From IMG/VR virus record IMGVR_UViG_3300038489_000010: a stretch of DNA of 34,857 nucleotides; one strand, written 5' to 3'. Positions 365-27,081 of this stretch are shown here, in pieces. Origin of the DNA: an uncultured virus (IMG/VR IMGVR_UViG_3300038489_000010) (lineage: Duplodnaviria; Heunggongvirae; Uroviricota; Caudoviricetes). The translations under genes were made by a program, and so were the position numbers. The notes beneath the pieces were generated by a model. That model saw only the letters and a program-made list of their open reading frames with translations, searched no databases and was not told where the DNA came from. Numbering within the stretch: position 1 is the stretch's first letter; every line of letters starts with the position of its first letter.

Positions 365-1096
365 ATGGACGAAAAAATTTATACAAGCGATTCTGCTTCA
401 AATTTTAGTAATGGCGCTATGATGGGTGCTATGCTTGGTAAAGATAATGATAATGCGTTGGCTCTTGCTAATGGTGGTTTAAACAACTGGATGAACAATC
501 CATTCGCTTACCTTATGTTTATGATGATTCCTGCTATTTGGGGCGGAAATGGATTTAATGGCAACAACAATGCTGTTAATGCTCAACTGCAGAGTTTGCA
601 AACTTAGATCTCTGATAATCACAACAATGACCTGACAATGCAGGCTATTAATGGTAGTCATGCTGCTATTACTCAGCTTGCACAGACTTTGAATGTTGGT
701 TTCGATCAGGTTCAGGGTGCAGTTAACCAGCTTGGTCAGCTGATGTAGGGTGGTATGAATAATGTTAATACATCTATTCTATCACAAGGTTATCAAAACC
801 AACTTAATAATTGTAATCAGACTAATACAATCTTGATGCAGTCTCAGGCTCTTCAGAACACAATTCAGAATGAAGTCACTGCGCTTGGTTATCAGTCTGA
901 GCGAAATAGTAGTGCTATACAGTAGGCCTCTACTGCTAACACTCAGAGAATTATTGACACGCTTAACAATCATTGGAATCTGGAGTAGCAAACAACTATT
1001 CAACAGCTCAGGGATGAGATCGGTCGTCTTAACCAGACAAACACTCTTATTTCTAGTCTGAAAGGTACTGCTACAGCAACTTCAACGGCTGCTTAA
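365..1096 (+). CDS. Hypothetical Gln/Asn-rich helical protein (243 aa, TAG=Gln)
   Basis: ATG 365; 4 in-frame TAG in Gln-rich context; TAA 1094-1096; hydrophobic segment NPFAYLMFMMIPAIWGG. Confidence 0.8.
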
Positions 1097-1121
1097 GCAT
1101 TATTAATTCATAATATAACCT

Positions 1122-1152
1122 CCTCTCGTTTATTTGACGAGAGGTTGTGTTA
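1122..1152 (+). terminator. Hairpin, probable intrinsic terminator
   Basis: CCTCTCGT / ACGAGAGG inverted repeat (1122-1129 / 1137-1144) followed by TTGTGTTA in an intergenic gap. Confidence 0.55.
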
Positions 1153-1172
1153 TATTATCTAATATATATAAT

Positions 1173-2681
1173 ATGGATATTTTAGATAATACAGGAGTTG
1201 CTAGAGTTGCTAATATAGCTAATACAAGGGCTGATGCATTAACTTCTGGCATGGCTAATATTGTTACAGCGTTAGATAATATAACATCAACTTCTGCTGA
1301 TTTATAGAAAGAGATTTCTGACAGAAAAGCTGCTGATACAACAATATAGAACAGTATAAACGAAACTCTTACTAATACAAACAAACTTATTGAAAGCGCA
1401 AATTCTGCTATTGTTGATGCAAACGGCGCTATCGCATAGGCAAAAAATGTTAATGCAGTACTCGACAATGACATATTAACTGTTACAGACAGAGATAACA
1501 ATTCTAAGAGTATTTAGCTTCTTAGTAATTATGAGAATGTAACTGTAAATTTGTTTACAACAAAATCTAATATTGATATTGTTGGAACACAACTTAATGT
1601 TTATATTAATAATGATACTACTACTCCTATATAGTATAATGCTGATTCAAATGGTGTTGTAACATTTAGAATTGCTAAAGGCAATTATTATAAGATTGTA
1701 TTCCCAGATAAGGCAGGATGTGCACATATAGCACCAATTGGATATACCGCAAGTATTGATAAAAGGACAATTACAGTTGAATATAAAGATACTGATTCTG
1801 GAATAGAAGAAATCCACGTTCTTACAAGGCTGTTTTCAACAGCAAGTACAAATGTCGCTATAGCAGCAGGATATTAGTGTACATTAACAATGGATGGCGC
1901 TACAACAACATTTAAGACTAATGAAAATGGAGAGTATGTATTCAAAGCCGAATATGGAAAAGAACTAACTATTACTGCTAGTGATTAGAATGATAAGAAA
2001 GTTGTTAGTGACGTTCCTATTAAGCATACAGCCAATGCGGCTATTAAATATATTTATGTATATTTTTCAGATGCATTATTGGGTGTAACAATTCTTGATA
2101 AGAATTTAAATACTTATACAGCAAAAGAGTGGTCTGATGCTGGTAAATCTAAACAGGATGCATTCCTAATTAGAATTGCTTCTACTACATCTTATAATCG
2201 TGGAGCAGATATTTATATTGATGCTCAAGCAATTGCCAATAAAGTATATACTAAGTCACCTTGGCAGAGTACAAATGATAATCTGTTGCTAGATTGTCCA
2301 TCAACCGTTGATACTTGGAATGGAATGCAGCAATGTGATAATTATATTGCATAGGCGAAATCTAATGGAGTAACAGTTCCGGCTATAGATAAATCAATGT
2401 CTTATTCATTAACTGATAATAATGGTGGAGTTTGGAAAGGATATTTAGGCTCTAAAGAACAATGGGAATTAACTTGGGTTAATATAAATGAATTGGACAC
2501 AGTGTTTACTGTCATATTCGGAGACGGTGTTACTATGAGCGGAAGCTATTCTGATTGGAAGTGGACTTCTACGCAGATCAATAGCAGCAGCGCGTGGTAC
2601 TTCAGTACCTACTCCAGCAGCTACGGTAAGAACTACAGCAAGTATGTTGTTCCCTTTTTTTTGCTTTCAATAAATAATTAA
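1173..2681 (+). CDS. DGR target protein (502 aa): N-terminal coiled coil, beta-rich middle, C-terminal C-type-lectin-like variable domain; probable receptor-binding fibre
   Basis: Single frame broken only by TAG; C-terminus WKWTSTQINSSSAWYF...KNYSKYVVPFF matches the WTSTQ...AW...V.P pattern of CLec-fold DGR targets and contains the VR. Confidence 0.88.
2571..2660 (+). repeat. DGR variable repeat (VR)
   Basis: 90-nt ungapped match to 3107-3196 with 13 mismatches, 12 at TR adenines. Confidence 0.96.
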
Positions 2682-2705
2682 CAATAAATAATAAATATAT
2701 AATAA

Positions 2706-3008
2706 ATGAAATCTCAGTTAGCATACAAACTATCGATAGATATAGTCAAAAATTTAACTAAAAATCAAGATAACATAAAAAGAGATATACGTTATGGTGA
2801 ATATTCAAAATTGCTATCATTAAGTTACGAACTTGTCGATGCAATTTCAGAGGATTCGTCATAGCGCTTTATTATATTAGGACGTATCAAAAATAGATTG
2901 TAGATACTAACAGAAATGAAATTTATTAAAATAAGTTTTGCAACTATGATTGTAAAGATAATTAATAAAATTAAAACAGAACTGTTGAGTCATGACGATA
3001 CAGAATGA
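2706..3008 (+). CDS. avd: Avd-like DGR accessory protein (100 aa, helical)
   Basis: Lies between target and TR; size and KRDIRYGEYSKL segment resemble Avd four-helix-bundle proteins; 2 in-frame TAG; TGA stop. Confidence 0.65.
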
Positions 3009-3106
3009 ATATCTCTACAATGATAAGGGGCTTATACTCTAAACTAGAGATAGAGGAGTTAAGAATAAGATAAGTAAGCCAGATTGGGTTAACGAGTTAA
3101 AAATAA

Positions 3107-3196
3107 ACGCAGAACAATAGCAACAACGCGTGGAACTTCAATACCAACTCCAACAACAACAATAAGAACAACAGCAACTATGTTGTTCCCTTTTTT
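3107..3196 (+). repeat. DGR template repeat (TR)
   Basis: AAC-rich copy of VR (acg cag aac aat agc aac aac gcg tgg aac ttc aat acc aac tcc aac aac aac aat aag aac aac agc aac tat gtt gtt ccc ttt ttt) just upstream of the RT. Confidence 0.96.
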
Positions 3197-3205
3197 GATT
3201 ATCGT

Positions 3206-4339
3206 GTGGAATATATTACAAGAAAAGAATTATACTTAGCATACATAGATTGCATAAAAAGAAAACGCTCTTCTAAAGGATTTCTTTAGTATTATGAGAA
3301 TTGGATAGAAAATAACGAATAGTTATATTTAGATTTAAATAATTAGACATATAAAATAGGAGTAAGTAAAGCTTTTATAGTTACTAGGCCAAAGTTAAGA
3401 GAAGTATTTTGTGCTTAGTTTAGAGATAGGATTGTACATCATTTGATATATAATAAGTTTAATAAAATATTTGAAGAATAGATGATAGACAATTCTTTTT
3501 CGTGCAGAAAAGGTAAAGGAACATTATATGGAATTAATACCGCTACAAATATTATAAAAGACATGAGTAATAACTATACAAAAGAAACATGGATTTTAAA
3601 GTGTGATATAAAAGGTTTCTTTATGTCTATTAATAGGTAGTTATTATATTCTATTATTAAACGATATATAAAATCTAATTACTTTGAATCAGATTTAAAA
3701 TGGTGGTTATGGCTATTAAAACTTGTAATACTAAATAAACCTGAATAGAATTGTATAAAAGTAGGAGATTTAACTTTATGGAATAAGTTACATAAAGAAA
3801 AATCTTTATTTAATACTAATGGTATAGGTTTACCAATTGGAAATTTAACATCATAGGTGTTTGCAAATTTGTTTTTATCTAGTACTGATAAATATATATT
3901 GTCGTTTGGAGTTGGTTATGTTCGATACGTTGACGACATGTTATTTATATTAAATGACAAAAATAAATTACTAAGTCTTATAGACATAGTAAAACATAAA
4001 TTAAAATAGATTGGTGTAACGTTACATCCAAAAAAGATATATATTCAAGAATCACATAAAGGAGTATTGTTTATAGGAGAGTATATAATGCCAAATAGGA
4101 TATATACGTCAAATAGATGTATAAACAATATGATTATGTGTATTCATAATTGGAATAATATAGAAAATCCAACTCAAAATCAAATAGATAATTTTCTATA
4201 TAAAATTAATAGTTATTTTGGATTTTTAAAACATACAAATTCATATGGTATTAAATATAGAATGTGGAACATGATAAATCATAAGAATCTTATTTGGTGT
4301 AAAAACATGATCTATATAAAACAAATTAAACATAATTAA
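3206..4339 (+). CDS. DGR reverse transcriptase (about 377 aa, GTG start inferred)
   Basis: Motifs PKLREVFCAQFRDRIVHH, KCDIKGFF, GLPIGNLTSQVFAN (Q is TAG 3854-3856), YVRYVDD (YVDD 3926-3937); 9 in-frame TAG, no TAA/TGA before 4337. Confidence 0.95.
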
Positions 4340-4340
4340 C

Positions 4341-4904
4341 ATGAATTTTGTAAATGCAATTATTCCGAAACAGGAATATAAAGACAAAGATAGTCTTGGA
4401 TCAAAAATTATTGTACATTTTAATCCTGTAGAAAAAGATGGAAATGTATATTGTGCAGAAACTATAGTTGATGAATATAATGAAGATGAAATAAATTCTG
4501 CATATTCATAGTGGAAGAAACGCATTGATGACGAATAGCTAAAAATTGCTAAGAATAATAAGATTAATGATATTTCAAAATATGATACATCAGACGCTGT
4601 AAATAGTTTTTCTATTAACGGAGTATCTATTTGGCTTAACAGAAATGATAGAAATGCTTTAATGCGTCGTTTTGAAGCAGAGAAAGCTTCTGGTATTGAG
4701 AATACAACGTTATGGTATGGTATAAACAAATTCAATCTTACTGTTGATAATGCTATTAATATGCTAAATAGTATAGAAGTATATGCATGTAAATGCTACG
4801 ATACTACATCATCTCATAAAGCAGCTGTTGAAGCTTTAACATCTATTGACGATGTGAATAATTATAATTACAAAACAGGTTATCCAGATAAAGTAAATCT
4901 GTAA
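4341..4904 (+). CDS. DUF4376-like tail-fibre-associated protein (187 aa)
   Basis: YDTSDAVNSFSINGVSIWL...IEVYACKCYDTTSSHKAAVEAL...YNYKTGYP pattern; 2 TAG. Confidence 0.72.
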
Positions 4905-5179
4905 TGTTAAAAGGTATATTCTGGAAGCCTGGTATTAATGGATTAGGTGTATTTGGCTTTCATAAGCTTCCGTATGCTAAATTGTTTGATAAAGCTGCAA
5001 GATAGCATGATTCTGATTATGACCTAAACGGTACATGGAAGAACAGAAGGTGTGCTGATATAAGGTTTCTTAAAAATGAATTAAATGTTTCACATAGCGC
5101 AGTCCAAATAGATTTTGCAATATTATATTATATATTAGTCAGACTATTTGGATGGGCTTTTTATAGATATAATAGATGA
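4904..5179 (+). CDS. Small protein with HD motif, DUF1353 / phospholipase-A2-like (91 aa)
   Basis: AARQHDSDYD...RRCADIRFL...YYILVRLFGW; TAATG overlap upstream and ATGA overlap downstream. Confidence 0.6.
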
Positions 5180-5655
5180 GTTTATATAATTTAATACAAG
5201 CATACAATAATGGCTCAGAAGAGTCTATGTATAAATCTATTAAAATTATTTCTGATTTTATAAATGATAAATTATCAGATGACGATAAGAATTGTTTAAA
5301 TAGATGTGTATACGGAATTGTCTCTAATTGCCACTATAATAAAGAATTTGCGCAAGAAGATATAGACAAGATGAAAATGTCAGATGGATCTGACATTAAA
5401 TTCATTGGACTTGATATTGCTAAATCTTGGTTTAATCAGTCGAATGTTAATAGTGCATACAATATATATGATTTCTGGGTTACATGCAATATGCTGTTAA
5501 CAGATGATTATGGTATGCTTAAGAAGTGGTTTCCAAATTATACAGATGACCAAATAATGTAGAAAGTTCATGAGTCTGCTATTAATTGGCTTAACGATGA
5601 CGATAATCCATTTGGAACAAGTAAAATTTGGTGTTATTTTAATTCAAAGAAATGA
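5176..5655 (+). CDS. Hypothetical protein (159 aa)
   Basis: ORF 5176 extends through TAG 5560 to TGA 5653-5655, overlapping the next ATG. Confidence 0.8.
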
Positions 5656-6056
5656 AGCTAACATTAAAAAGAATTGCTCTTAAACAAACTTATACAATAG
5701 GACATTTGTATATAGATGGTGAATATTTCTGTGACACAATTGAGGATAAAGTTAGAGATTTAAAAAAAGAACCAAAAATTAAAGGATAGACAGCTATACC
5801 ATATGGAACTTATGAAGTTACATGGTCTTATTCTCCAAGGTTTAAGAAGTTTACTCCAAGATTATAGAATGTTCCTCAGTTTAGTGGAGTTCTCATACAC
5901 AGTGGAAACACAGCAGCTGATACAGAGGGCTGTATAATAGTTGGCGAGAATAAAATTGTAGGTAAAGTTATAAATTCAAGATCAACGGTTAATAAATTAT
6001 ACCCAATTATACAGAAAGCTTGTAAAGAGGGTAAAGTAACAATAGAAATAGTATGA
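5652..6056 (+). CDS. DUF5675-family protein, putative endolysin (134 aa)
   Basis: MKLTLKR...YTIGHLYIDGEYFCDTIED...TAIPYGTY...LIHSGNTAADTEGCIIVG signature; 2 TAG. Confidence 0.82.
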
Positions 6057-6514
6057 TATTTAAAGATATAAAACAAGGAGATGCTATCTATCTGTTTGAT
6101 AGAAACGATATATCAGTACAGACAGGTAAGGTTACAGCTGTTAGCGGATCTCATGCTGGAAAGTATAACAATACGTTTGAGATGGTTGTTGATATAACTA
6201 TTGATGTTGATGGAAAATCGCAAACATATACGTTTAAAGATAGTAATGAAGTTAGTTATACTGGATAGATAATGATAACTCCGAATAGAGATAATATCAT
6301 CAGAGAAGTTAAACAGCTTAAGAGCCAGGCTGAAGATGTACTTAAGAATGTTGAGAAGAGTAAAGTAACCATAGAAAAGTGTTCTTCTCTTATTGCTGAT
6401 TTCGATCCTGTTTATAAGGAACGTAAATAGAATGATGAGAGATATTCTAAGTTAGAATCAGAGATAGCTAGTATCAAAGAAATGATAACTAATTTGGCTA
6501 ATAAGAATGTTTGA
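6053..6514 (+). CDS. Hypothetical protein with C-terminal coiled coil (153 aa)
   Basis: Read-through of 2 TAG to TGA 6512-6514; ATGA overlap with upstream gene. Confidence 0.8.
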
Positions 6515-7019
6515 CATACAAGGTACAAAAATTAAACTCAGTACAGACGATTTAGCTATTCCTCCATTCAAAGATTATTATAACAATGCTAATGACAAAA
6601 CAAGAGCTTTAAAAGATATAGAATATGTTATCTGGTTATATAAATGGAATAGTCCATACGATGCATACCCAGAAAAACAGAGAGCAAGCGTTCTTGGAAA
6701 GGATTTATATGGAGACGAATAGTTTAAGCCTAGTACTGAATTAAAACAATTAGGGAAACGATTTTTAGAGTTTTAGGAAACACCTGGAACTAGATTGCTA
6801 GCTGCATCTAAGAAAGCTGCAGAAGGTCTTATAGAGTCTCTAGAATCTTATTCTCAAGATGCTATGGATATTGATACCGCACTTAAGATAACTAGAATAC
6901 TTAAAGATGTTGGCAATATAGTTAAATCTCTGGATACTGCTGAAAAACAAGCAAAGGCAGAACAGATGGAAACAGGTAAGATTAAAGGAGGAGGTTATCT
7001 TAACGCCTTTGAGATATAA
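6507..7019 (+). CDS. Conserved protein upstream of terminase (possible small terminase subunit, 170 aa)
   Basis: ORF-track fragments 6507 and 6795 share a frame joined by TAG; TAATG coupling to terL; function inferred from position only. Confidence 0.65.
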
Positions 7020-9076
7020 TGATAGATTTTAATGAGAGATATAAAGACACAGATAAATTCAGATAGCCAGCTATATACTTTGAATAGCATGGTTATTATA
7101 CGCCGGCCCCACCAAATACAACTGATTATAATACATATTGGGAGCGCGAAGCACAGCGATGTCTAAATGGATATACAGCTCCTGATGGTCAATGGATAAC
7201 TGGTTATAACTACTTCTATCTTAATTATAGTCCTATTATGAAACTTGTTGAGACTGAGTATACTGATAGAAACGGAAATAAAAGAACTAGACGAGAGCGT
7301 TTATTTAAGTTCCCAGACTTCTGGGATTATGATACACACTACTTTAAAGCTATAGAAGAAGCAGAAGCTGAAGGTAGGCATATGGTTGTGTTAAAGGCTC
7401 GTGCTAGAGGATATTCGTTTAAAGGAGCATCTATGCTGTGTCGTAATTATTTTCTCATTAAGAAATCTAAAAGCTTTGCTGTTGCATCAGAACAGAAATA
7501 TCTAACAGGTGATGGCTTGTTAACTAAAGCTTGGTAGATAATGGATTTCTTAGACAAGAATACTGGATGGGCTAAGCGAAGACTTAAATCAACATCTCTA
7601 GAACGTACGTCTGGATTTAAGATAAAAGATGAGATAACTGGTAAGGAAGTTGAAGATGGTTATCAATCCAGTATAATGGGTATAACACTTAAAAATGACC
7701 CAGAACGTATTCGTGGTACTCGTGGTAAACTTGTGCTATGGGAAGAGGCTGGTAAATTTCCAGATATTAAATAGGCATGGCAGATAGAACGCCCTGCACT
7801 TGAAGATGATGCTGGTAATGCATTCGGTTTGATGATTGCGTTCGGTACTGGTGGTGAAGAGGGAGCTGACTTTGAAGGACTACAAGACATATTCTATCAT
7901 CCTGATGGATTCAACTGTTTGGAATTTCCGAACATTTGGGATACAGGAATGAATGATTAGAAATGTGGATTCTTCGTTCCAGCTTGGTCTAATTTGTATT
8001 CAACAGATCATCCAGAATGCATGGATGAATATGGTAACACAAATAGATCTCCAGCTATTAAAGTTCTCATGGAACAACGTGAACGTGTTCGACAAGGATA
8101 GCCAGATGAAACTGTAACAGATAGATATATAGCAGAGCACCCTATAACACCACAGGAAGCTATACTTGAGGTAGGTAAAAACATATTTCCTAAGAAACAA
8201 TTATAGATGTAGTTATCTCATATAAGAACTAATACTAAGCTTTAGAATATGAAGCACATAGTTGATCTCACATGGGGTGGAGACGGATAGGTTATAGCAA
8301 CAGAAAAGAAATCTGGTGATATAACAAACTACCCTCTTAAGAATGGACAAAAACCAGAAGGATCTGTTGTTATATGGGAATATCCAATTAAAGATCCTCC
8401 ATTTGGTTTATATATCGCAGGATGCGATCCTTATGACCATGATGGATCATTAACCAACTCTTTAGGTTCTACATTTATATATAAGCGTTTTCAACCTGGC
8501 GAAGCTTGGACTGATTGTATTGTTGCTGAATATAGTGGTAGACCAGCTACTGCTGAAGAATATTATGAAAATGTTAGAAAACTTCTAACATTATATAATG
8601 CTAAGTTACTTTTTGAGAATGAACGTAAAGGTATATATCCATACTTTACTAACAAGCATTGTGATTATCTATTAGCCGATTAGCCAGATAAGGTTATAGG
8701 AGAGATATTTCATGACTCAAAAGTACAAAGACGTAAAGGATGTCATATGTCTAAATAGATAAGACAGTATGCTGAAGGCCTTATAAAAGAATGGCTATTA
8801 GAGGAGTTTTCTCCAGGACATCCAAATCTAGAAAGAATTTACAGCGAACCTTTAATTGAAGAGTTGCTATTAGATGATGGTGAACGAAATGTTGACCGTG
8901 TAATAGCACTCTGTATGGTTATGATATATAGAGAAGAACTATACTAGGTTAAAGTCGCTGCTGCAAAAGAATAGAATAAATAGGTTGACTTCTTCGAGAC
9001 TCCGTTGTTCTCAGACCAATGGTTTTAGGATGATGACGTGGGACAACAAGATGACATACCGACATTTACATTTTAA
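7019..9076 (+). CDS. terL: Terminase large subunit (685 aa)
   Basis: Walker A-like VLKARARGYSF, Walker B LVLWEEAGK, FGTGG motif, nuclease IAGCDPYD, and crAss-type ITGYNYFYLNY; TAA 9074-9076. Confidence 0.93.
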
Positions 9077-9078
9077 CA

Positions 9079-12000
9079 ATGATAAGAGTAGAAGATAATT
9101 TATATAATGCAAACTTTCCTCAATAGAAGTTACCTTTATCAAAGAAGGATAAACAATGGAAGCACGATTGTGTGAACTATATTATTGGAGAAGGCAATGT
9201 TGTCTCTGGAGGAATGCAGAAGACGCACTTCGGAGAGATACAAACCTATTACGATCTTTATAATAGTATCTTCGATGAAAATGACTTTAAACGTATTACA
9301 AATCCGTTCAAGGTAGCGGATGGATTTCCAGCAACTCCATAGGACTTTAATATAATACGACCGAAAGTAGACCTACTTATAGGAGAAGAAACAAAGCGGC
9401 CACTTAATTTCAGAGTTGTTAGAACATCTTAGGAAGCAACATCAGAGTTAATGGATAAGGAAAAACAAATGCTTATTCAATATATGATGTCTGCTATAAC
9501 AGCGCGTATGAGTCCAGAAGAACAATAGTAGTTTCAAGAACAGATTCAGAGTGGAGAAATAATGCCACCTGAAGAGATTGGAAAATACATGCGAAGAGAT
9601 TATAAAGATGTTGTTGAAAATACAGCTTATCATGCTCTAGTTTACTTAAGAGAGAAGCTAGGACTTGATAATGAGTTTATTAAAGGTTGGAAAGATGGAC
9701 TTATAGCAGGAGAAGAAATATACTATGTTGGTGTATTAAACGACGAACCATACATGGAACGTGTTAATCCATAGTATTTCTCGTATGATATGAGCCCTGA
9801 TCTTGAATTTATTGAAGATGCTTCATGGTGTTGCAGAAAAATGCGTTTACCAGTTGCTGAAGTTTATGATAGATATTATGATAAACTTGAAGAAAAGGAT
9901 CTTGATAAACTCAACGAGATGTTAACAGGAAGACCTTCTAATGATTTAGGAGAAAAAGATCCTGTTGACAACTTCAATCATATCAATATGCATATCTATG
10001 ATAATCCTATATTTGATCAAAAGACAAGACATAATATAAATGTTTGGCATTGTTGTTGGAAGTCTTTTAAAAAGATTAAGTACGTGACAATGCTAGATGA
10101 TCAAGGATAGGCTTAGATAGAAATAGTTGATGAGTTTTATGAACCAGTTGGAACAGAACTAGCTGTTGAAGACGATTGGATCGTAGAAGTTTGGGAAGGT
10201 TATAGAGCAGGATCAGACTTATATTTTGGTATTTAGCCAATAGAATATCAACATGTTAGCATAGATGATCCTAATAGCTAGAAGCTTCCATATTGCGGTG
10301 CTGTTTATTCAAATACGAATAGCAGACCAAGAAGTCTTGTTAGTATTCTTAAGCCATTGCAATATATGTATATAGTATTATGGTATAGGCTTGAATTAGC
10401 ATTAGCTAGAGATAAAGGCAAGGTTGTTAATATGGATATTACACAGATACCTAAATCTATGGGTATAACACCAGCTAAATGGATGCATTATCTATCTAGT
10501 GTCGGAGTTAACTTTATAAACCCATATGAAGAAGGATGGTGTTTCGATCCAGAAACACTTGTATCCACTCCTAGCGGTAATACTAAGATGAAGGATATTA
10601 GATTAGGATAGTTTGTATATACACCTGGTCATCATCTAGCTTAGGTTACAAATCTTTTCCATGGAGAAGACGAGATGTATAATATAATACCATCTATAGG
10701 ATCCGATGTACAGAAAGTTACAGCTGACCATTTAGTCAGATACAGATACAGAATAAATGGACACTCTGATTCTGAAGTACGAGTAGATAAAGCTAGAGAT
10801 TTAATGCTTAAGTTCAAGTAGAACAAATATTATGCACAAAGATGTTTTCTTGAGAGAGAAGATAACTTCTTCGATCCTAAAGAACCTAGCAAGTTTTGTG
10901 GAAGAGATATGTATTTGCTTGGACTCTGGCTTGGAGATGGTACAAAGAATACACCAGAATTCGAATCCATGGATCCAGAGATAATACAATACCTTGAAGA
11001 TTACGCTTGTACACACGGATTAAGATGTTCTTATAGACACAAAGATGGTAGTAGATCTATGACAATTAGACTTAGTTCTGCTAATAATAAAAAGAAAGGA
11101 CAGGCTTTCTTAAATCCGTTTATAGAAGATCTTAAATACTTTGGCGTTTATAGCAATAAAGATATAAGCGGTTTACATATAGATAATATTAATGATGCTT
11201 TAAACTTCTTAGCAGGATTAATAGATACTGATGGAAGCGTATTTAAAGGAAGCGGAAATCATAAAGGATATGTAGAATTTACACAATGCGAATCACATAA
11301 AGACATATTTGATTTATTCGTTGACTTAGCTAGAAAATTAGGATATAGAGTCTCTGTAAAGAGAAAAGAATCCGTTGTTAAGAAGATATATAAAAATAAA
11401 GCTATAACTATTTCTGAACCTTTCTATAAAGCTAGAATATTCGACGGAAATTATGATATACCTACAAAAGTAGAAAGAAAGAAATTCCATTTTACATAGG
11501 GTAGAGTATATAATAAAAACTATTCGCATTTCAAGATAGAATATGCTGGCAGAGGTGAATATTACGGATTTGCCATTGATGATCCAAAGCATGAATTCTT
11601 ACTCTCTGATATGACAATAGTTCATAACTGTATTCCAGGACGTGAAGGCGGAAAACCTGCAACATTTAATCAGTTAACAGCTTTAGACTTAACAATGTCT
11701 AATGTTATTGCTGAGTATATCCAATTAATGGATAAGATCGAACAGCTAGCTGGTACTATATGCGGTATAACAGAACAGAGACAAGGAGAGATAAGTACAT
11801 CTGAACTTGTTGGAAATGTTGAACGTTCTGTTGTTCAATCTAGCCATATAACAGAGCCTTTATTCTGGGTGCATAATCAATGTAAGAGACATGTTCTTAA
11901 TATGCTTCTTAACACAGCTAAAGGCGCTTGGCAGCAGTCTGGTAAAAAGAAACTTCAATATATATTTGATAACGGAGAACGCGCTTTCATAGATATAAAT

Positions 12001-12654
12001 CCTAAATTCTATTTTGAAGATATGGATGTCTTTGTTAGCGATACATCTAAAGATCTTGAGAATATATAGAAGTTACAACAACTTATACAACCAGCTATGT
12101 AGAATGGAGCTAGTTTGCTTGAAGCAGCAGAGGTTCTTACGAATGATAATTTCAATATCATTAAGCAGAAGCTTAAAGATATGCAAGATCGTCAAGAACA
12201 ACTTCAGCAGCAACAGCAGGAAGCTGAACAGCAATAGGCTATACAGATATAGCAGATGTAGAATGAAGCTAAACAACAAGAGCTTATGCTTCAGGAAGCA
12301 TAGATGGATCTTGATAGATATAAGATAGACGCTGATAACTAGACTAAGATAGCTGTTGCAGAGATTAGTGCATATCGTGGTACAGAGGATAAGGACGCTA
12401 ATATGAATGGTATACCTGATCCTATGGAAATAGCTAAGAATGCAACTGAACAACGTAAGATTGATCAAGATGCTTATTAGAAGCGATATGAAGCTAGACA
12501 GAAGAGAGAGATAGAAGATTAGAAAGTTAAACTTGCTAGAGAGCAAATGAAGCATGAGTCTAGTTTATAGAAACAAAAAGACGATGCTGCAATGGAACGC
12601 GAGTAGCTTAAAGCTAGAACGGCTCTCAAGAATAAAGTTGTTGGATAGAAATAA
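9079..12654 (+). CDS. Portal protein precursor (1191 aa including a 363-aa intein)
   Basis: Follows terL; FPQQKLP start, NIIRPKVDLLIGEE, EVWEGY, ICGITEQRQGEI...VGNVERSVVQSS; all ORF fragments in one frame. Confidence 0.9.
10540..11628 (+). mobile_element. Intein with LAGLIDADG homing endonuclease in the portal
   Basis: EEGW|CFDPETLV (block A), VTADH (block B), YLLGLWLGDG and FLAGLIDTDG (endonuclease blocks), IVHN|C (block G with Cys+1). Confidence 0.94.
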
Positions 12655-12656
12655 TT

Positions 12657-14048
12657 ATGACTAGAACTAATTACCCAAAGCCGTCTAATCTACTATAGTA
12701 GTAGAAATAGACAGGAAAATCTTACTGGGACATGATTGGTTATCCTCTTCCAGAAGTTACAGTTACTTCCAATTATCCTCATGAATAGAGAGTATGGAAT
12801 ACTGTTAATTAGGCTAGATATGGTTTTAATGAACCAGAATTTCTTCGTAGACTTGATTATAATGATCGTAGATATATAAAAACTCCATATGGAGGAGAAT
12901 CAACACATTTGATGGCTAATGATGGCAATTATGTTTATCCTATGATATAGGACATTAATGGTACGCTACATAACTATGATAAGAAATATGGAGATTATTG
13001 GAATAGAGATCCTAAGGAAAATGGAGATTATATAAAATTTTAGACTCCAGGAGATGCAAGATATTTTGCTGAGCATTATAAGAAGTACTGGCCTATATTC
13101 TTTCAAGGAGCATTTAAAGATGGCAAGGATATGCTGCCTGGATTTAAAGGAGGGTTTGATTCATTTGCAAATGGAGTTGGAAGAGCTATTTATAACGAAA
13201 TGATTGCAAATGGTTGGTACACACCAGCTAGATATGACAATATAATGTCATAGCTATCATCAGAGTCTGGACATGGTACAAGTATGCTTGCTACAAAATA
13301 TCATAATTATGGTGGCAGAAAGAATGCTAAAGGTGGATATATGCACTTTAAAGATGATTCTGCATTCGCAAAAGATCATCTTGCATATTTACAAAGAATG
13401 CATAGAGCTGCATGGAATGCAAAAGACACTATGGATTATGTGAAAGCTCTTAAAGCATCTAACTATATGGGTGATAACATATATCATTATTATAATTTAC
13501 TTAAAGGACAATAGAGCGCAAGAAAGGCATGGAATGCAGCTATGAAGACATGGGTATAGCCAAAATAGGTTATTAAGACTGCAATTACAGAACCTGTTGA
13601 TGCAACAAGAGTTGCTCAGCCTATAGTACAAGAATAGAAACCATAGCATTTACCAACACCAGTTGCTCGTCAAGAAATATAGCCAACAACTTACATAGAT
13701 CCAACATTATTATTTGATCAACCAGAAGAAGTATAGCAGCCAGTTGTTGAAGATAATTACGAAGCATCTTTGCTTCCTTCTATACAGGATGCTATGTAGT
13801 ACTTTCTACCTAGTTAGACACCATTTGCTAATAATGATTTTATGTCTTAGTTAGTTCAAGTTGGATTGCCTGGTGCTAAATATGGAAAAGATTCTGGAAT
13901 ACATATAAAACCTTCTCATAGAGGCAGGTTTACGAGATATTTAAAATCACATCCAGGAATGACTGCTGAAAAAGCTAAACATTCCAAGAGCGCTGCTGTT
14001 AGAAAGATGGCAACATTTGCTATAAATGCAAGAAAATGGAGGCACTAA
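12657..14048 (+). CDS. Multidomain protein (463 aa) with GH73/FlgJ-like muramidase domain and basic C-terminal motif; probable virion cargo
   Basis: IMSQLSSESGHGTSMLATKYHNYGG...YVKALKASNYMGD resembles GH73 AQAALESGWG...NNLFGIK...YATD; C-terminal IHIKPSHRGRFT...FAINARKWRH; about 19 TAG. Confidence 0.72.
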
Positions 14049-15391: not shown

Positions 15392-16915
15392 ATGAATAAC
15401 GGTTTATTGAATAATCTTCAGCTTTATCGCGGACGTCGTTTCAGCGATCTTGTTGATGAGAATATGATTTCAAATGCATTACTGACAAAGCCTCATGAGG
15501 TAGCTGGTTTGCTGTCTCTGGTATTCGGTACAAAGGATGATGGTGTATCAACTGCTATCGATCTGATCACAGGCGGACTCGGTAAGACAATGATTATCGA
15601 GAATAGAGAATACGAATGGTCAGTAATGATCGATCAGGATCATGCTGTCAATATTCGTTGGGCAAAGGCTAATGGCAAGGAGATTACTGCTAATGATATT
15701 GATAAAGCTACTCCTGGTCTTAATGGTGCACCAATCTACATCGCTCTTGAGGAGCGTTGGTTTGGACCAGGTGCACTCCTTTCTTTTGACAATGTTAACT
15801 TCCAGGTACGTGTAAATGGTACGCCTTATCAGGATGGTTCTGCATGGGTATACGAGTGCTACGTAGCTGAGGGTTTTGCAGGTTCTTACATTCCTGCAGA
15901 GTATCTTCTTCCTGGCCGTCAGGTTAGCCGCGTAGGTTCAGCTTACGAGGAGTACAGCGATGAGGCTGATATTATCAACTATCAGACTCCGTTTAAGATG
16001 CGTAACAACCTTATGACTCTTCGTCTGTCATACGATATTACAGGTGATGCTTATAGCACAGTACTGGCTATCGCTTTGAAGGATCCTGAGTCTGGTAAGA
16101 CATCTTATCTGTGGTCTGACTATCAGTATTGGCTCGCTCTGCGTGAGTGGAAGCGTCGTGAGGAAAAGGCTCTTCTGTTTAGTAAGTCTAATAGAAACGC
16201 TGATGGTTCATACGCACTTAGAGGAACAAATGGCCGTCCAGTACCAATTTCCGCTGGTTTGTTCGAGCAGATTGCTCCTGCTAACATTCGTTACTACACA
16301 ACTCTGACAGCTGAGTTGCTTGAGGATTTCCTGTTTGACCTTTGCTATAATATGCTTGGTACACAGGAGCGCAAGTTTATCGCTCTGACTGGTGAGATGG
16401 GTATTCGTGAGTTCGACCGTATCCTCAAGGAGAAGGTTGCTTCATTTAATATGATTGATACTCACTTCGTAACTGGTTCTGGTCAGGATCTTGTTCTTGG
16501 TGGTCAGTTTACAACCTATAAGATGACAAATGGTATTGAGCTCACTTTGAAGCGTTGCCCAATGTTTGATAACATGGAACTCTTCCGTCAGCTTCACCCA
16601 CTTACAGGTAAGCCATTGATGTCTTACACATTCCTGTTTGTTGATCTTGGTAACCGCGATGGTCAGCCGAATATTGTTAAGGTATGTCGTAAGGGTCGTG
16701 AGTTCGTTCAGTGGTGTACTGGTGGTTCTGTAATCCCAAGTGGTTACGCTAATAGTATCAATACACTTCGTTCTAACAGCCGTGATGGTTACCAGGTACA
16801 CTTCCTTGGTGAGGAAGGTATTATGCTTCGTAACCCACTGTCTTGCGGTATTCTGTATTGCGATGCAGAGGATACCGAAATGACTAACAACGGTGGTGTA
16901 GGCGTAGCTCGCTAA
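15392..16915 (+). CDS. Major capsid protein (507 aa), crAss-like
   Basis: Long ORF with no TAG, strong codon bias, size, position in terL-portal-scaffold-MCP module; EYEW, GLFEQI, ALTGEMGIREF segments. Confidence 0.9.
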   Translation: MNNGLLNNLQLYRGRRFSDLVDENMISNALLTKPHEVAGLLSLVFGTKDDGVSTAIDLITGGLGKTMIIENREYEWSVMIDQDHAVNIRWAKANGKEITANDIDKATPGLNGAPIYIALEERWFGPGALLSFDNVNFQVRVNGTPYQDGSAWVYECYVAEGFAGSYIPAEYLLPGRQVSRVGSAYEEYSDEADIINYQTPFKMRNNLMTLRLSYDITGDAYSTVLAIALKDPESGKTSYLWSDYQYWLALREWKRREEKALLFSKSNRNADGSYALRGTNGRPVPISAGLFEQIAPANIRYYTTLTAELLEDFLFDLCYNMLGTQERKFIALTGEMGIREFDRILKEKVASFNMIDTHFVTGSGQDLVLGGQFTTYKMTNGIELTLKRCPMFDNMELFRQLHPLTGKPLMSYTFLFVDLGNRDGQPNIVKVCRKGREFVQWCTGGSVIPSGYANSINTLRSNSRDGYQVHFLGEEGIMLRNPLSCGILYCDAEDTEMTNNGGVGVAR

Positions 16916-19907: not shown

Positions 19908-19976
19908 TTTTAACGTGGAAACCCCAGCTAGTTAGGTCTAGCCTTGTGTATAGGGGAAGTAGAAAAAATTAATAAT

Positions 19977-21089
19977 ATGATAACATACGTAAACACAGTG
20001 CTGGTAGCAAACCAGCCGGCTGCACTTGTTGCAGATCCAAAGAATCTGGCTCAGTCAACAGACGTAGAGTCTCCTGAGGCAGGTCATTTCATTATCATGA
20101 ATCTTGATCCTAATACAACTGAGGAAAACCAGTATACTATTGATGCTAATACCCAAAAGATCAAGATTGGCTTGGTAACAAACAAGAATGTTGTTGTTCG
20201 TACAAAGAATGGCAACAAGATTACTGTTAAGTATCAACCTATTATTAAATGGACAAACGACATTAAGAAGCACGACATTAAATCTTTCACAGAACTTATA
20301 GCTCCTGCTACTATGAACGATGCAGATTCAGAGGACAAGGTTACAATTGATTTCACTAGTCTTAATGGAACCATTCTTGATAAACTTGCAGAAGGCGGAA
20401 AGAGAGTTATTGTTCGCCTTACATTTAAGGATCTTCCAACTCGTTATCGCAAATGGACTGAGTCTTATGAGTACGTAACAATGGTTGGTGATACAAAGCA
20501 GAATATTATCGAAGGTATTGCTTCTCAGATCAATGGTCAGTGGAAGCGTGCGCGTGTAATAGCAGATGATAGCAAGGCTGCTGATGGCAAGCTTGTTATT
20601 ACCGCTATGAAGTATGACGATGATAACGACTTTAATACCATTAATCGCGCAAATAAGGTTCGTTTTAATGCAAACATGTATTTCACAGATCCTGCAGCTG
20701 AAGGCTGGGAATCTTTGAACAAACATTATCTCCAGGGTGTTAAGATTATCAAGACACCGGCTAAACAGTATCCAGCTATTGGCAAGCTTGTTCGTGATCG
20801 TGAGAATCAGGCTTATGGATATCAGGGCATTCTTAACCGTGGTATGTGTACATGGCCAATTATCCAGCCGGAACGCGTAGCTAAGGATAATGTTATTTAC
20901 AATGCACTCACTCTTGAGTTTGAAAATATGTATCGTGCTGCAGACGATATTTTCCGTAAGACAAAACAGACCGTTGAGTTCTATATTAACGGTGATGTTT
21001 CTGCACTTAAGGATGAGCTTACTAAATTCGCTGGAACTCCAGTTAATGAGACTGGTGATTATCCAGAGCCTGAAAACGAAGGTAAGTAA
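19977..21089 (+). CDS. Probably abundant virion structural protein (370 aa)
   Basis: No TAG, MCP-like codon bias, followed by terminator; ATG 19977 after an A-rich leader. Confidence 0.75.
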   Translation: MITYVNTVLVANQPAALVADPKNLAQSTDVESPEAGHFIIMNLDPNTTEENQYTIDANTQKIKIGLVTNKNVVVRTKNGNKITVKYQPIIKWTNDIKKHDIKSFTELIAPATMNDADSEDKVTIDFTSLNGTILDKLAEGGKRVIVRLTFKDLPTRYRKWTESYEYVTMVGDTKQNIIEGIASQINGQWKRARVIADDSKAADGKLVITAMKYDDDNDFNTINRANKVRFNANMYFTDPAAEGWESLNKHYLQGVKIIKTPAKQYPAIGKLVRDRENQAYGYQGILNRGMCTWPIIQPERVAKDNVIYNALTLEFENMYRAADDIFRKTKQTVEFYINGDVSALKDELTKFAGTPVNETGDYPEPENEGK

Positions 21090-21108
21090 TTATAAATTAT
21101 ATGATTAG

Positions 21109-21141
21109 AGGTGGGCGGACTTCTGTCCACTCACCTTTTTT
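21109..21141 (+). terminator. Intrinsic terminator
   Basis: GGTGGGCGGAC-TTCT-GTCCACTCACC stem followed by TTTTTT. Confidence 0.85.
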
Positions 21142-21159
21142 CGTTTAACATATACGTAT

Positions 21160-22617
21160 ATGAATAAAATAAGAATTGGAAACGATATTAGACTTCTGGT
21201 TGCTTTGACTAATTCATCTGATTGGGATAAAAAGAATATTAAGTCAATTAAAGCGTTTCTTGTTAATACGTCAATCAAAGACTTTGAAGAGAAGTGGCAT
21301 GATTTTCCAGGACGTTTTCCAAGAGATCCTTAGTCTAAGTTCTTTAGACCTGATTGTCATTGCTTAAATAGATGTGGTTATCCACATTATCATGCTATGC
21401 CATGTGATAGATTCAATCACCATTGGTGGCATATGTGGCATATGGATCATGATCCAAATTATGTATTTGATGATGGATTTCATCGTCCTTTCTGGCCACA
21501 TCCATTCGATGGTCCATGCGATCATCATTTCTATCATGGCTTTGGTTTAGAACCTGGTAGATGGCCAAGCCGTTGGTTTGGTTGGACAAGGCGTGATGAC
21601 GTTTCATTTGGACATAAAAGCCCGTTTGATGGTATTCCATTGCATATAGGAGAAGATTGGACTTATCTTGCTCCTTCTAGAGAGGTTAAAGATAAGTATG
21701 TTAAAGCTGATAAAGATGTTCATCATCAGATTGAAGTATTCTTCCCGGCGTAGGACCAGATTGCATGTGGTACATATAAGCTTATTCTTGTTATAACAAG
21801 TTATAATTCAGGTTGGGGAAGAAATAACATGCATACATATACGCAAGATTGTGGTGGAGTATTTGAACTTGTTGATGATGAAACTGGAGATTTTGGAGAT
21901 ATAACACTACTTATCCCAGAAGGAGAAAAGGTTGGTAAAGATAGTATTGACGACATTAAGATTGGAGGAATTAATACAGAGGTTGATCATTACTATATCA
22001 GCTATACAAAATATTTAGGAGAAAGCTTTGAACTTGGCGATACTGATAGTAGAGGCAATCTATATCAAATATATGCTCTTTAGAATGGATAGATGATACA
22101 GTATGAACCTAATGATAAATTATATTTCTCTTCAAATAGACCAGAAGTTGTTTATGTAGATGGAGGAACAGGTTCAATGAGAATTAATATTGATTAGTTC
22201 TCAAAAATTGCAGATGATCCAAATGCTATAATAACTGTTACATTAAATGAAACTGGAGAAACAAAGAAGTTTATGGTTACTGTAATTGATCCAGATGCAG
22301 ATAATGTACTTATTGGATTTAGCCATGCTGGCGATTTAAACGATCTTGATATTTCTAAATTAAAATACTATAAGAAGTAGAATGGTGTTAAATTTGATAT
22401 ATTTAATCCAGAACCTACTTCTTATCTGTGGGTTGGATCTAAAACAATATTAAAATATATAGACAACGCAAATCCATTAAAGACTGTTGGTGTAACATCT
22501 TAGAGATTCCCAGTTCCAATGCTTGGTGCTGTATATCAGAATGGTAAATATTGGTATCGCTCAGCAGAAGCTATTATGAATGGTTATATGTCGGATATAA
22601 ATATAGAATAGAATTAA
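21160..22617 (+). CDS. Probable fibre-base / structural protein (485 aa) with His/Trp/Pro/Cys-rich segment
   Basis: MNKIRIGNDI start; single frame through TAGs to TAA 22615-22617; beta-rich C-terminal half. Confidence 0.72.
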
Positions 22618-22618
22618 T

Positions 22619-24811
22619 ATGAATAGTAATAATTTTAACGAAGACTATGCTATAAAGATATTTGGTACTTTGTATAGTAAAGTAGCAGATGGTCATCTTG
22701 CATTTGCTGAATAGATATACGATGATACATATCCAAATGGCACAAATCTTGGAGATAATAGTCAGTACTCTATAAATAGATAGGTAAAAAAAGATATTGA
22801 CGCAATTAATGACCCAAATAAAGATTGGACTATTAATAATCTTAGAATTAATGGACAGTCTACTATTACGTCTCCTATTAAAATTTGGAAAGATTTTGAT
22901 GATGGAGATTATGAATACATAGATTTGTCAACAGATGGGTATACATTTGCAAGTTCAGATGATCCTTCAAATCACGAGCATCACTATTGGTCTGAAATTG
23001 CTTCTAAAAAATATGTTGACAATAGGGTTAATGCATTGATAAACGGAGCTCCAGATGCGTATGACACACTTAAGGAAATATCTGATTATATTATATCAGA
23101 TAAAGATGCTGGTGCTGCTATCTTGAATAAAATAACAAATATAAACAATAGTATAGAAAGTATTGGAAGCAAGATAGGAAGAGTTCATTTTGTTAGCGAT
23201 ACAGATGATAGTATTAAAAACGCAATTGATAGTCATACGTTTGTAAAAGCTAATTATTTGCAAGTTGGCATTGATAACTATAGTAATGGTACAACATCGT
23301 TTACACCTGGATATATTGCATTTCTTTCTGGGAAGGGAAGTATTCAAGACTGTCAGAAAGCTTTAATAGAATATGATCCTGAAAATTTAAAGATTAGTTT
23401 TACTCTGAATGCTGTAGATACTAATTCTAAATATCATCTTGGTAATCCGTCACTCAATTATAATAATGTTAATAATATTGATAATAACAGAATAATTGTT
23501 GGAAAGGATTTGCATAATGCTATAGATCTTGTTAATAGCAAATATTATGATAAAAATACTATTGACACAAAGATTAACAAAATAATAGCTGGAGATGTTG
23601 ATTTAACTGGATATGCTCTTAAAACTGATTTATCAAATTATGCATTAAAAAGTGATATTTCTAAATATGCTCTTAAGACAGATATTCCAACAGTTCCAAC
23701 AAAGATTAGTCAGCTTACTAATGATTCTGGTTATATAACATCATCAGAAGATGTTAACACAACAAACAAATCTTTAAAGTTTGATTCTAGTGCAAATTCA
23801 AACAATATGAATTTGACTTTAACGGTAACAGATTCTGATAATAAGTCAATTAGTGATGATATTAAGCTTGAAAAAGCAAATAGTGAGACAGCTGGCCTTA
23901 TGGGTGCTGTTGATAGAAACTACATTACATTCTTGCTTAATAAAGTAAACGAACTTGAGTCTAGGGTAAATAAACTATCTACAAGTGGAGATGATTCTCA
24001 AACAGAAAATGTTTGTATTTCTAGGATTCCATATATTGCAATTCGTGACAATTTAAAAAATATAAACGGAATATTTAGTGGAACTGGTTATGCTGCATTT
24101 CCAACAAAAACAGACCCAACAATTTAGAGCGCCATTGCATATAAGAATAATTCATCATTTACTACAGAGTATATTGCTACGTTCCCTGATCTTGTTATAA
24201 ATGCAAATGAACTTAAAGTTTATAAACTTGTAAATAATAATACTAGTCATATTATTGGAGATACAGTTAAATTTGATTTTACAATGGGAGAGAGTAGGTT
24301 TCACAATTGCGCTGGAACTGTAAAAGAATGGACAATTAGAAATATTGTTGATTCAAATGAATATAAAACAGTACTTGGAACGTTCACTATAAATAACATT
24401 AAGATTTCATCTTAGCCTGGAATGCATCCTATTCCTAATACTAAAAATACAAACAGATAGTATTATACTGTAAATGGCAATTCTGATTATTTTGCAAGTC
24501 AATTTAAAGCTGGTAAAAGTTATACAATAACATATACTAGTTCTGATGTTTCTAAAGTTAACTTTAAGAATACTCATATTGTAAACTAGGATAATGCCAG
24601 CGCATCAACAGGTGCAGACGAAATCTCAGTTGGAAATATTGGCAGCACTAAAGACGGTATAGTTATAACTCCAACTATAAATGTAACATCTTAGTCTGAT
24701 ACAAAACTTGAATTTACAATCGCTATACCTAGTGATGTTTACTGTATAAACGAAATTATAGATATACAGTATAGTGGTTATAGAGATGTTTCGCTTATAT
24801 ATAATTATTGA
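22619..24811 (+). CDS. Tail fibre-like protein (730 aa)
   Basis: ALINGAPDAYDTLKEI, YALKTD repeats, IPTVPTKISQLTNDSGYIT and AGLM motifs typical of phage fibres; TGA 24809-24811. Confidence 0.8.
23612..23686 (+). repeat. Three degenerate 27-nt coding repeats (YALKTDLSN / YALKSDISK / YALKTDI)
   Basis: Seen directly in DNA and translation. Confidence 0.8.
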
Positions 24812-24817
24812 TAAATT

Positions 24818-24922
24818 ATGTTAAAGAAAAAGATACTCGGAGCCGTTGATGGAAAGTCTAAGACTAATGTAAATGTTATGTCTGATGATGATGTTTAGAA
24901 TTTAATAGATAAGATTCAATGA
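24818..24922 (+). CDS. 34-aa peptide MLKKKILGAVDGKSKTNVNVMSDDDVQNLIDKIQ
   Basis: Fills the gap exactly; ATGA overlap with the next gene; 1 TAG. Confidence 0.45.
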
Positions 24923-25245
24923 ACAACTACGTAAATAATTTTTAGAAGCATACCGATAATTGGAAAGATAAAGTACAATACGGTGTAGCAACAACATCAT
25001 TTATTGCTGGAGTTGGCATGGGATTCTTGTCTTTCTTAACATCTAGAACTTTATCTGGAGAAATACTAGGGTTTATTGGAGAATGCTTCACATTAACCGG
25101 TGGTATATTCGGCATAACTTTATATGTTCGTAATAAAGTAGCTTAGGCTGGTACATATATAATAGAATAGACTAAGCAAATTTTTGACCAACACGAACAA
25201 GAATATCATAGAAATGATAAAGACGATAATAGCTTGGATAGTTGA
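24919..25245 (+). CDS. Putative holin (108 aa)
   Basis: Two hydrophobic segments (YGVATTSFIAGVGMGFLSFL; ILGFIGECFTLTGGIFGITLYV) and a charged C-terminal tail; 3 TAG. Confidence 0.55.
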
Positions 25246-25873
25246 GCATAGTAAAATCGTCAAGAACGCCATTTTAAGCCTCGTGGTGGGCTTATCTATA
25301 TTGTTTGGTGTAGTTAACTGCAAGAACAATTAGAAGCTCTCAGAAGAGCTTAAAACAGCTAACAATAACATAGAGGCCTACCAGGAGCTTTAGAGCTCTT
25401 AGTAGGCTTCTCGTGTTTTATATCTAGACATGGCTAAGCTTGGCGAAACAAAAGATACGATACTAACTAAGATGAATGATGTTGCTAATGATAATAATGT
25501 TAAATCTAAAACAATGTTAACAGCTGCAACCCAGACTTAGGATGTAAACGTTAAAAGAAGTAAAAAAGTAGAACAAGACACTATACATGATCTAGTAACT
25601 ATATTAAAAGATACAACATATAGTGATACTATAAAATATAATGATTTAACAACTATAAGTTATACAATAGGTAAAGATACAGTAAGTATAGGTCTTAAGT
25701 TAAATAACACATAGTACTTATATATTTATAAAGATAAACATTATAGATACAAAAACTTCTGGAAGAGATTAATAAGATTCTGCTGGAAGAAAGATATTGA
25801 TTATAAGTACAAAATAATAAATACAAACGACCTACTCAAAACAAGTAATGTGAGAGTAGTTAATGCAAAATAA
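25214..25873 (+). CDS. Membrane-anchored coiled-coil protein, spanin-like (219 aa)
   Basis: N-terminal TM (AILSLVVGLSILFGVVNC), coiled coil, basic/aromatic C-terminus KNFWKRLIRFCWKK; overlaps the holin candidate. Confidence 0.5.
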
Positions 25874-25874
25874 T

Positions 25875-26651: not shown

Positions 26652-27081
26652 TTCTATAACACTTAGAGACATGTATAAAAAAATGCCAAATAAGCCTATT
26701 TATAGCGATTTTAAGGCGATTACAGACTGTATGTGTAAAGTTATTCTAGAATGTTTAGAAGACAGCTCAGACGGCTTTAAAATGCCTTCTGGACTAGGAT
26801 ATATTAGAATAGGAAAGTATCTACCTAAAACATATACTGATAAATCTCTAAGTGTTGATTATAAAGCAAGTAAAGAATACGGTAAACGTATTTATCATCT
26901 GAACGAACATTGTGGAGGGTATAAATTTAGATTGTTTTGGTCTAAACAACCATATACATTTTCAGACAGATATAAATACCAACTTGTATTCGTTAGAGCA
27001 AATAAAAGAAGATTAGCTCAACTGATTTTTAACCATAAAGATTATATAAATATAGATGATATACAAGTTTACAACATGTGA
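26638..27081 (+). CDS. IHF/HU-like basic protein of the crAss tail module (about 147 aa)
   Basis: Basic ORF with FKMPSGLGYIRIGK; sits before the tail tube gene; start could be 26626. Confidence 0.6.
   Translation: MRKNNSITLRDMYKKMPNKPIYSDFKAITDCMCKVILECLEDSSDGFKMPSGLGYIRIGKYLPKTYTDKSLSVDYKASKEYGKRIYHLNEHCGGYKFRLFWSKQPYTFSDRYKYQLVFVRANKRRLAQLIFNHKDYINIDDIQVYNM

Follow-up and report, generated by a model that had tools for sequence, protein, structure and literature searches.

Amber-recoded diversity-generating retroelement in the late block of a Suoliviridae-like crAss phage shares its dependence on stop codon suppression with neighboring genes

Bordetella phage BPP-1, which is temperate and uses the standard genetic code, carries a diversity-generating retroelement (DGR). 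In this element (bRT-Avd; PDB 8ub7 and 4dwl), the target gene, avd, the template region (TR), and the reverse transcriptase (RT) gene follow one another in that order, and mismatches between the TR and the variable region (VR) are adenine specific. DGRs have also been reported from recoded phages; here and below, statements about that literature refer to the available parts of the texts. Lou et al. (bioRxiv 10.1101/2023.08.07.552389) described three persisting, lytic, code-15 gut phages of about 100 kb with DGRs; their VRs changed over a period of three years, and in one lineage 502 nt of the RT had been deleted. Zeta crAss-like phages (Int J Mol Sci 2025, PMC12386605) have DGRs that target the C-type-lectin tips of tail fibers. 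Both sources have published recoded DGR RTs that adjoin recoded tail targets. Yutin 2021 (PMC7886860) and Borges 2021 (10.1101/2021.08.26.457843) found that reassigned stop codons cluster in structural and lysis genes of the late phase and proposed that in-frame reassigned stops delay translation until a suppressor is present; the Borges preprint extends this timer role of recoding to a selfish element, the homing endonuclease of an intron, and according to the Yutin paper, a suppressor often escapes detection in phages of this kind. The available parts of these two texts contain no mention of DGRs or reverse transcriptases, and a literature search, with bioRxiv supplements outside its scope, found no explicit printed claim of a code switch gating a DGR. 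Here, we describe a DGR cassette in a 34,857-nt stretch of an uncultured virus (IMG/VR record IMGVR_UViG_3300038489_000010; the whole stretch is called the window below), which represents the block of late structural genes in a Suoliviridae-like crAss phage of the bovine gut that is amber recoded (TAG read as Gln).

The cassette is a complete, active DGR (target with VR, Avd-like ORF, TR, and RT) located in the tail fiber part of this block, and its RT, Avd-like protein, and target depend on an amber suppressor, as nearly every neighboring gene does. It shares with the BPP-1 DGR the gene order, with the Avd-like ORF in the position of avd, and the adenine-specific TR/VR mismatches and differs from it in that all three of its genes need amber suppression and in that its Avd match is at the fold level only and is not significant. 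With the phages of Lou et al., it has in common a recoded DGR RT beside a recoded tail target, VR change, and loss of the RT in some lineages; those phages come from the human infant and mother gut, and the present one comes from bovine gut runs. The Lou paper ties DGRs to persistence and, in the text examined, proposes no code-switch gating of the DGR. Zeta crAss phages belong to another family and have genomes of 155 to 177 kb, whereas the present phage is Suoliviridae-like with an RT clade that is otherwise standard code. The locus thus adds a bovine-gut, Suoliviridae-like example to a reported class of amber-recoded phage DGRs. Applying the code-switch model to a DGR is an extension and not a new mechanism, and no new regulatory system is revealed.

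The features of the cassette are listed in Table 1. The TR and VR differ at 13 of 90 nt, and 12 of these 13 mismatches fall at TR adenines. The RT translation contains GNLTSQ and YVDD (residues 241 to 244), and its match to BPP-1 8ub7_A aligns the LTSQ motifs. For the target protein, no Pfam or PHROGs family was found. A terminator-like hairpin of 9 pairs (1122-1144) overlaps the TTG at 1134, so that translation of the target probably begins at the ATG at 1173 instead; a transcription unit may start with this gene. The 100-amino-acid (aa) ORF between the target and the TR has no sequence-level family in Pfam, PHROGs, or PDB sequence searches. Its AF2 model is a helical bundle (pLDDT of 86), and Foldseek ranked 2gsc and 2rld, of the Avd-related 23S-IVS family, highest and placed next three Avd chains from the Bordetella phage (8ubb_D, 4dwl_D, and 8ub7_E; TMq of 0.63 to 0.65). 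These matches had probabilities of 0.82 to 1.0 and E values of 0.02 to 1.3. Because no structural match reached an E value of ≤0.001, we call the ORF Avd-like rather than Avd; the modeled fold suggests that it may serve the Avd function. The TR is conserved in a metagenome relative (L100), with 1 difference. Read in the VR frame, the TR contains a single AAG codon (3179-3181), and no other TR codon could become a stop under table 11 (TAG) through mutation of adenines; with TAG read as Gln, adenine mutagenesis of the TR cannot yield any nonsense codon. A blastn search of the cassette against a phage collection returned no match, and a scan for sigma-70 promoters gave 56 sites compared with 44.5 ± 7.5 in shuffled sequences, a result that carries no information in this phage and its host.

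Table 1. Coordinates (in the window) of the DGR cassette, of the segment that strain variants lack, and of two genes downstream
Feature	Coordinates	Strand	Basis or remarks
DGR target, tail fiber-like, 515 aa from TTG	1134..2681	+	VR at its 3' end
VR	2571..2660	+	90-nt TR match; 30 sense codons, with 6 sense codons of target beyond; ends 21 nt before stop codon
Avd-like accessory ORF, 100 aa, helical bundle	2706..3008	+	Between target and TR; fold-level likeness
TR, AAC/AAT-rich	3107..3196	+	Hairpin 3166-3188 at 3' end
DGR RT, 377 aa, GTG start, GC 0.23	3206..4339	+	RVT_1 2e-20; PHROG 1423 3.7e-77; PDB 8ub7_A 2.2e-23
TR + RT segment missing in strain variants	3107..4335 (3044-4335 in second form)		Contig junctions, runs X15 and X5
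TerL	7019-9076		Assigned from position, length, and TerL-level identity to relatives' annotated terminase
Portal	9079-12654		Assigned from correspondence to relatives' annotated portal

The codon counts of an initial annotation of the cassette, made from the sequence alone, proved accurate. TAG accounts for 9 of the 13 Gln codons of the RT (codons 28, 39, 47, 71, 92, 145, 181, 217, and 268), and the remaining 4 are CAA (codons 281, 324, 326, and 373), with no CAG; eight TAG codons lie before YVDD and one lies after it, and the Gln of GNLTSQ is itself encoded by TAG (codon 217; Q217). The Avd-like ORF has 2 TAG codons among 4 Gln codons (codons 53 and 66, with 1 CAA and 1 CAG), and the target has 8 among 16 (with 4 CAA and 4 CAG). 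As the annotation had also stated, the standard code would stop the RT after about 27 codons, the first TAG being codon 28, and the longest table-11 ORF within the gene is 90 aa (4067-4339). DGR finders that use table 11 will miss such cassettes.

The RT frame is a real gene that is read through TAG, as follows from four observations. There are no in-frame TAA or TGA codons, compared with a mean of 31.6 and a minimum of 16 in 2,000 shuffles, whereas in-frame TAG occurs 9 times, with 8.2 expected from composition. The RVT_1 match covers residues 63 to 291 and spans 7 TAGs. Q217 is invariant in a five-sequence alignment, and its counterpart in 8ub7_A, a DGR RT of solved structure, is the Gln of LTSQ. 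Finally, comparison with the RT of L100 (93.7% nucleotide identity) gave a dN/dS of 0.12, both for the whole gene and for codons 29 to 377 alone. L100 has the same codon at each of the 13 Gln positions, including all 9 TAGs, with 41 synonymous differences elsewhere; as 66 of 378 codons differ between the two genes, all 13 Gln codons would be expected to be kept about 8% of the time.

The similarity to L100 is uneven along the locus. Over window positions 2842 to 5701, identity is 92 to 98% across the Avd-like ORF, TR, and RT and 70 to 87% in the downstream tail-related genes (4442-5641), and dS is 0.25 in the RT and 0.67 in the next gene. Either a recent exchange of the cassette or fast evolution of the neighboring genes would produce this drop in identity past the RT.

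VR diversification is ongoing in natural populations. We aligned to the cassette the contigs of four sequencing runs, three DNA runs from three studies (X5, X6, and X13) and one RNA run (X15), so that the comparison is at the level of contigs and not reads. All three DNA-run assemblies break at the VR: X6 contigs end at 2544 and restart at 2708, X5 contigs end at 2571 and restart at 2643, and X13 crosses the VR only with a 172-nt contig (depth of 4.9) that carries 19 differences. Among the between-run VR differences that were listed, 5 of 5 fall at TR-adenine positions (44 more were unlisted).

The same contigs revealed strain variants that lack the TR and RT. A 5,059-nt contig of X15 joins position 3106 to 4336, whereas X5 contains another form in which 3043 is joined to 4336, with loose ends that map to 4336; the depth in X5 is 16.8 over the RT-bearing form compared with 38 to 93 upstream. 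The two left junctions share one right junction, which lies exactly at the RT stop codon, and the variants retain the target, VR, and Avd-like ORF. The sole long contig of the RNA run is RT-less, with a depth of 0 to 1.4 over 3274 to 4339, and this run is uninformative on RT expression.

We then consider whether the recoding of the DGR exceeds that of its surroundings. In-frame TAG occurs in 27 of the 31 window ORFs, where it makes up 199 of 541 Gln codons (0.37). In the adjusted tests, the ORF called from 20737 was trimmed to the ATG at 21160, as it overlaps the preceding gene, which changed its counts from 10 TAG and 12 CAA/CAG to 8 and 6. The TAG share of the RT is 0.69, and its difference from the rest of the window is nominally significant (Fisher P value = 0.017 to 0.018) but not after correction over 31 ORFs (Benjamini-Hochberg q = 0.28) or when TAG is compared with CAA only (P value = 0.14). 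TAG share drops as GC content at third codon positions (GC3) rises (Spearman coefficient = −0.46, P value = 0.009), and a GC3 regression from which the RT was left out predicts a TAG share of 0.49 for the RT, from which 9 or more TAGs among 13 codons would arise with a probability of 0.12. For the whole cassette, 19 of 33 Gln codons are TAG compared with 14.4 expected (P value = 0.076). Overall, the TAG excess of the RT is explained by composition, and the gene is not an outlier among window ORFs, as the initial annotation had itself allowed in naming drift in a low-expression, AT-rich gene as an alternative; the GC3 trend and the composition expectation both fit that alternative.

The idea that this coupling represents a DGR-specific or undescribed regulatory system is unsupported, as the dependence is common to 27 of 31 ORFs and recoded DGR RTs have been published. 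What does stand is that diversification needs amber suppression, in the sense that the RT, Avd-like ORF, and target are not full-length without it; this need is not peculiar to the DGR. The prediction that the cassette would be dead in a code-11 genome likewise agrees with the sequence, in that its genes would be truncated there.

Significant TAG enrichment is limited to one ORF of the window, at 12657-14048, where TAG makes up 19 of 29 Gln codons (q = 0.041). Its match to Glucosaminidase is weak and below threshold (E value of 2.8e-4), and the TAG richness of the ORF recalls the bias of lysis-related genes toward recoded stops described in the available literature. At the other extreme, the major capsid gene (15392-16915; GC of 0.44) has no TAG and uses CAG for 15 of 15 Gln codons, and a 381-aa ORF (19944-21089; GC of 0.39) has 0 TAG among 14, 12 of which are CAG. 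The homologous ORFs of a complete relative (G001; 81% TerL identity) show the same behavior. Such avoidance in these two genes fits a mild translational cost that is purged only by highly expressed genes.

The relatives of the RT point to how it may have acquired its TAG codons. A single-protein scan of IMG/VR returned one relative (41% identity), and an alignment-based scan yielded a set from which we took the 80 best, with 31 to 50% identity; none of these 80 has a stop inside the RT match. The initial annotation had named code-11 sister DGRs as a useful comparison, and in it the RTs of the relatives are TAG-free within the match and mostly have Glu or Lys at the TAG sites. The sister RTs have a GC content of 0.41 to 0.52 compared with 0.23 for the window RT. 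Among 12 standard-code sisters, Gln is present at position 39 in 9 and at position 217 in 11. At the other seven TAG positions, the sisters mostly have Glu (GAA/GAG), Lys (AAG), or variable residues, including those encoded by TTG and TCG, and a single base change would convert most of these codons to TAG. This does not apply to position 47, where the sisters have Met, Gly, and Arg codons that are more than one base away. By sequence comparison, the RT clade is of standard-code ancestry, and the locus offers a clean case of a standard-code lineage naturalized in a recoded genome, with GC falling from between 0.41 and 0.52 to 0.23 and TAG arising mostly at former Glu and Lys sites.

An RT lies within the fetched flank of TerL in only 1 of 80 TerL relatives. 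In L041, an independent relative that is likewise recoded and bears a DGR close to TerL, the RT match contains 2 TAGs among 8 Gln codons, compared with a TAG share of 0.18 in its flank (the L041 RT counts are both high-scoring segment pair [HSP] based and ORF based). The L041 RT (8773-9450) and the window RT (3206-4339), the two DGR RTs detected in recoded Suoliviridae-like phages, both have a GC content of 0.23, far lower than that of the respective genomes (0.36 and 0.335).

Given these results, we consider it likely that the cassette is an active DGR in an amber-recoded phage whose TAG codons arose by AT-biased drift, with suppressor dependence as a by-product. In the simplest history, a recoded phage, with TAG as a sense codon, would have taken up a DGR that used the standard code. 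The RT may then have turned very AT-rich and gained TAG codons through ordinary single-base substitutions, two of them at conserved Gln sites and most others at tolerant Glu and Lys sites, and selection against TAG would have been weak in a gene of low expression. If suppression is late, as published models propose, diversification would be confined to that phase as a by-product. Capture followed by AT-biased substitution would lock the cassette into recoded genomes, with no need for selection on gating, and the locus illustrates how an alternative code can become a one-way barrier to gene flow. Several observations weigh against drift as the cause of the RT TAGs. The RT shows the second-highest nominal TAG enrichment of the 31 ORFs (P value = 0.018, uncorrected), and the P value for the whole cassette was 0.0099 before composition adjustment. 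The low expression of the RT is suggested by its composition. In addition, all 9 TAG codons of the RT precede all 4 CAA codons (exact P value = 0.0014), and TAG codons of the target lie earlier than its CAA and CAG codons (P value = 0.0074); drift does not predict such a TAG-first order.

A general 5' bias of TAG as the cause of this codon order was considered and rejected, as it is missing elsewhere: TAG is not shifted toward the 5' end in the window once the DGR is left out (z = −0.74) or in the late block of G001 (z = +0.50), and TAG position in the loci of 47 relatives shows no clear 5' bias (median z = −0.33). The codon-order test was chosen after the data had been seen, and L100 is not an independent replicate. 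It is conceivable, and in our view highly doubtful, that the TAG-first order reflects selection, specific to the DGR genes, for amber codons near the start, with mutagenesis licensed by the code switch and locked into recoded genomes. If so, not even a truncated active enzyme or fiber would be made before the suppressor appears.

ARAGORN found no tRNA and Rfam no match in the window, which covers the late block only. In G001, ARAGORN called 9 tRNAs, none with a CTA anticodon; one call, a 93-nt tRNA-like sequence at 20703-20795, has no assigned anticodon. By ORF calls that are crude (ATG starts, greedy), TAG occurs in 14 of 44 minus-strand ORFs of G001 (share of 0.088), in none of the 9 ORFs that directly precede the late block on the plus strand, and in 21 of 24 late plus-strand ORFs (share of 0.176). 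This pattern agrees with the late-gene reassignment published in PMC7886860, as far as the available text describes it, and does not show when suppression starts. Late timing would follow from the literature for the whole block and not for the DGR in particular. The extent of recoding differs between relatives at 81% TerL identity. The 9 TAG-free ORFs of G001 (L096) occupy 20809-28013, and the corresponding window ORFs upstream of TerL (365-7019) nearly all contain TAG.

Under the proposal of the initial annotation, the TAGs in the DGR genes were selected as a gate, so that RT and Avd are made only after amber suppression and retrohoming is confined to late infection. The RT does need read-through from codon 28, its TAGs and those of the target are front-loaded unlike those of other genes, and 30 of 44 minus-strand (early or replication-side) ORFs of G001 are TAG-free, as the late-gene model of PMC7886860, in its available text, expects. 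Retention of all 9 RT TAGs in L100 despite the synonymous differences elsewhere points the same way, but it is weak evidence, given how often chance would keep every Gln codon. We regard selection for a gate as decidedly unlikely, since composition alone accounts for a TAG share as high as this and most neighbors are alike, and since the TAG share of the L041 RT is low; by position, the sole CAG of the L041 ORF (codon 287) is probably the signature Gln. A different possibility is that suppression is effectively constitutive in infection, through a suppressor that is phage encoded and early or provided by the host, so that TAG is a plain Gln codon and nothing is gated. The TAG-bearing minus-strand ORFs of G001, two of which have 7 TAGs each, would fit this, as would the lack of a CTA-anticodon tRNA by ARAGORN in G001 or the window and the neutral composition expectation that in-frame TAG in the RT meets. 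On the other hand, TAG is rarer on the minus strand of G001 than in its late block and is absent just upstream of that block, some of the TAG-bearing minus-strand ORFs may be spurious given the crude calls, and the TAG-free state of highly expressed capsid genes suggests that decoding TAG has a cost; constitutive suppression is therefore unlikely in our judgment.

A reading in which the TAGs act as true stops, so that the cassette is dead and its RT a pseudogene in decay, is scarcely credible. Strain variants without the TR and RT do exist, and RT deletion in a recoded phage is reported in the available text of bioRxiv 10.1101/2023.08.07.552389. Purifying selection nevertheless continues past the first TAG, in-frame TAA and TGA are absent where many would be expected, RVT_1 spans 7 TAGs, and the GxxxSQ motif has its invariant Gln encoded by TAG. 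Natural populations vary at the adenine sites of the VR, and the capsid, terminase, portal, and muzzle are full-length only when TAG is read as Gln.

The assignment of the phage rests on the whole window. Read with TAG as Gln, it forms one co-directional block of long ORFs, and table 11 breaks up the same genes. Pfam matches include Crass_capsid (7.6e-213), crAss_MUZ (9.7e-214), Ring_1 (5.4e-93), and Ring_2 (1.5e-49). TerL, the portal, and the muzzle contain 16, 26, and 29 TAG codons, respectively, and their Pfam matches are full-length under TAG as Gln; the homologues of the capsid, terminase, portal, and muzzle are full-length under this code only. The window capsid gene has 78 to 80% nucleotide identity with cr272_1 and its kin, cr272_1 being classed in Suoliviridae (Oafivirinae), whereas the nearest IMG/VR genomes have a TerL identity of only 81% with the window. 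In 78 of 80 TerL relatives, TerL contains in-frame stops, so that recoding is the rule in this clade. The cassette, whole or partial, was detected in 20 metagenome rows from 12 studies, 14 of which contain at least half of its sampled words, and the runs that bear it are bovine or unspecified gut metagenomes. The portal of the window phage has 1,191 aa compared with 828 aa in relatives. It contains an intein-like insert at about residues 488 to 850, with matches to Hom_end (2.7e-10) and LAGLIDADG_3 (1.1e-6) and weak Hint matches, and this insert itself contains 4 TAG codons (511, 522, 581, and 807).

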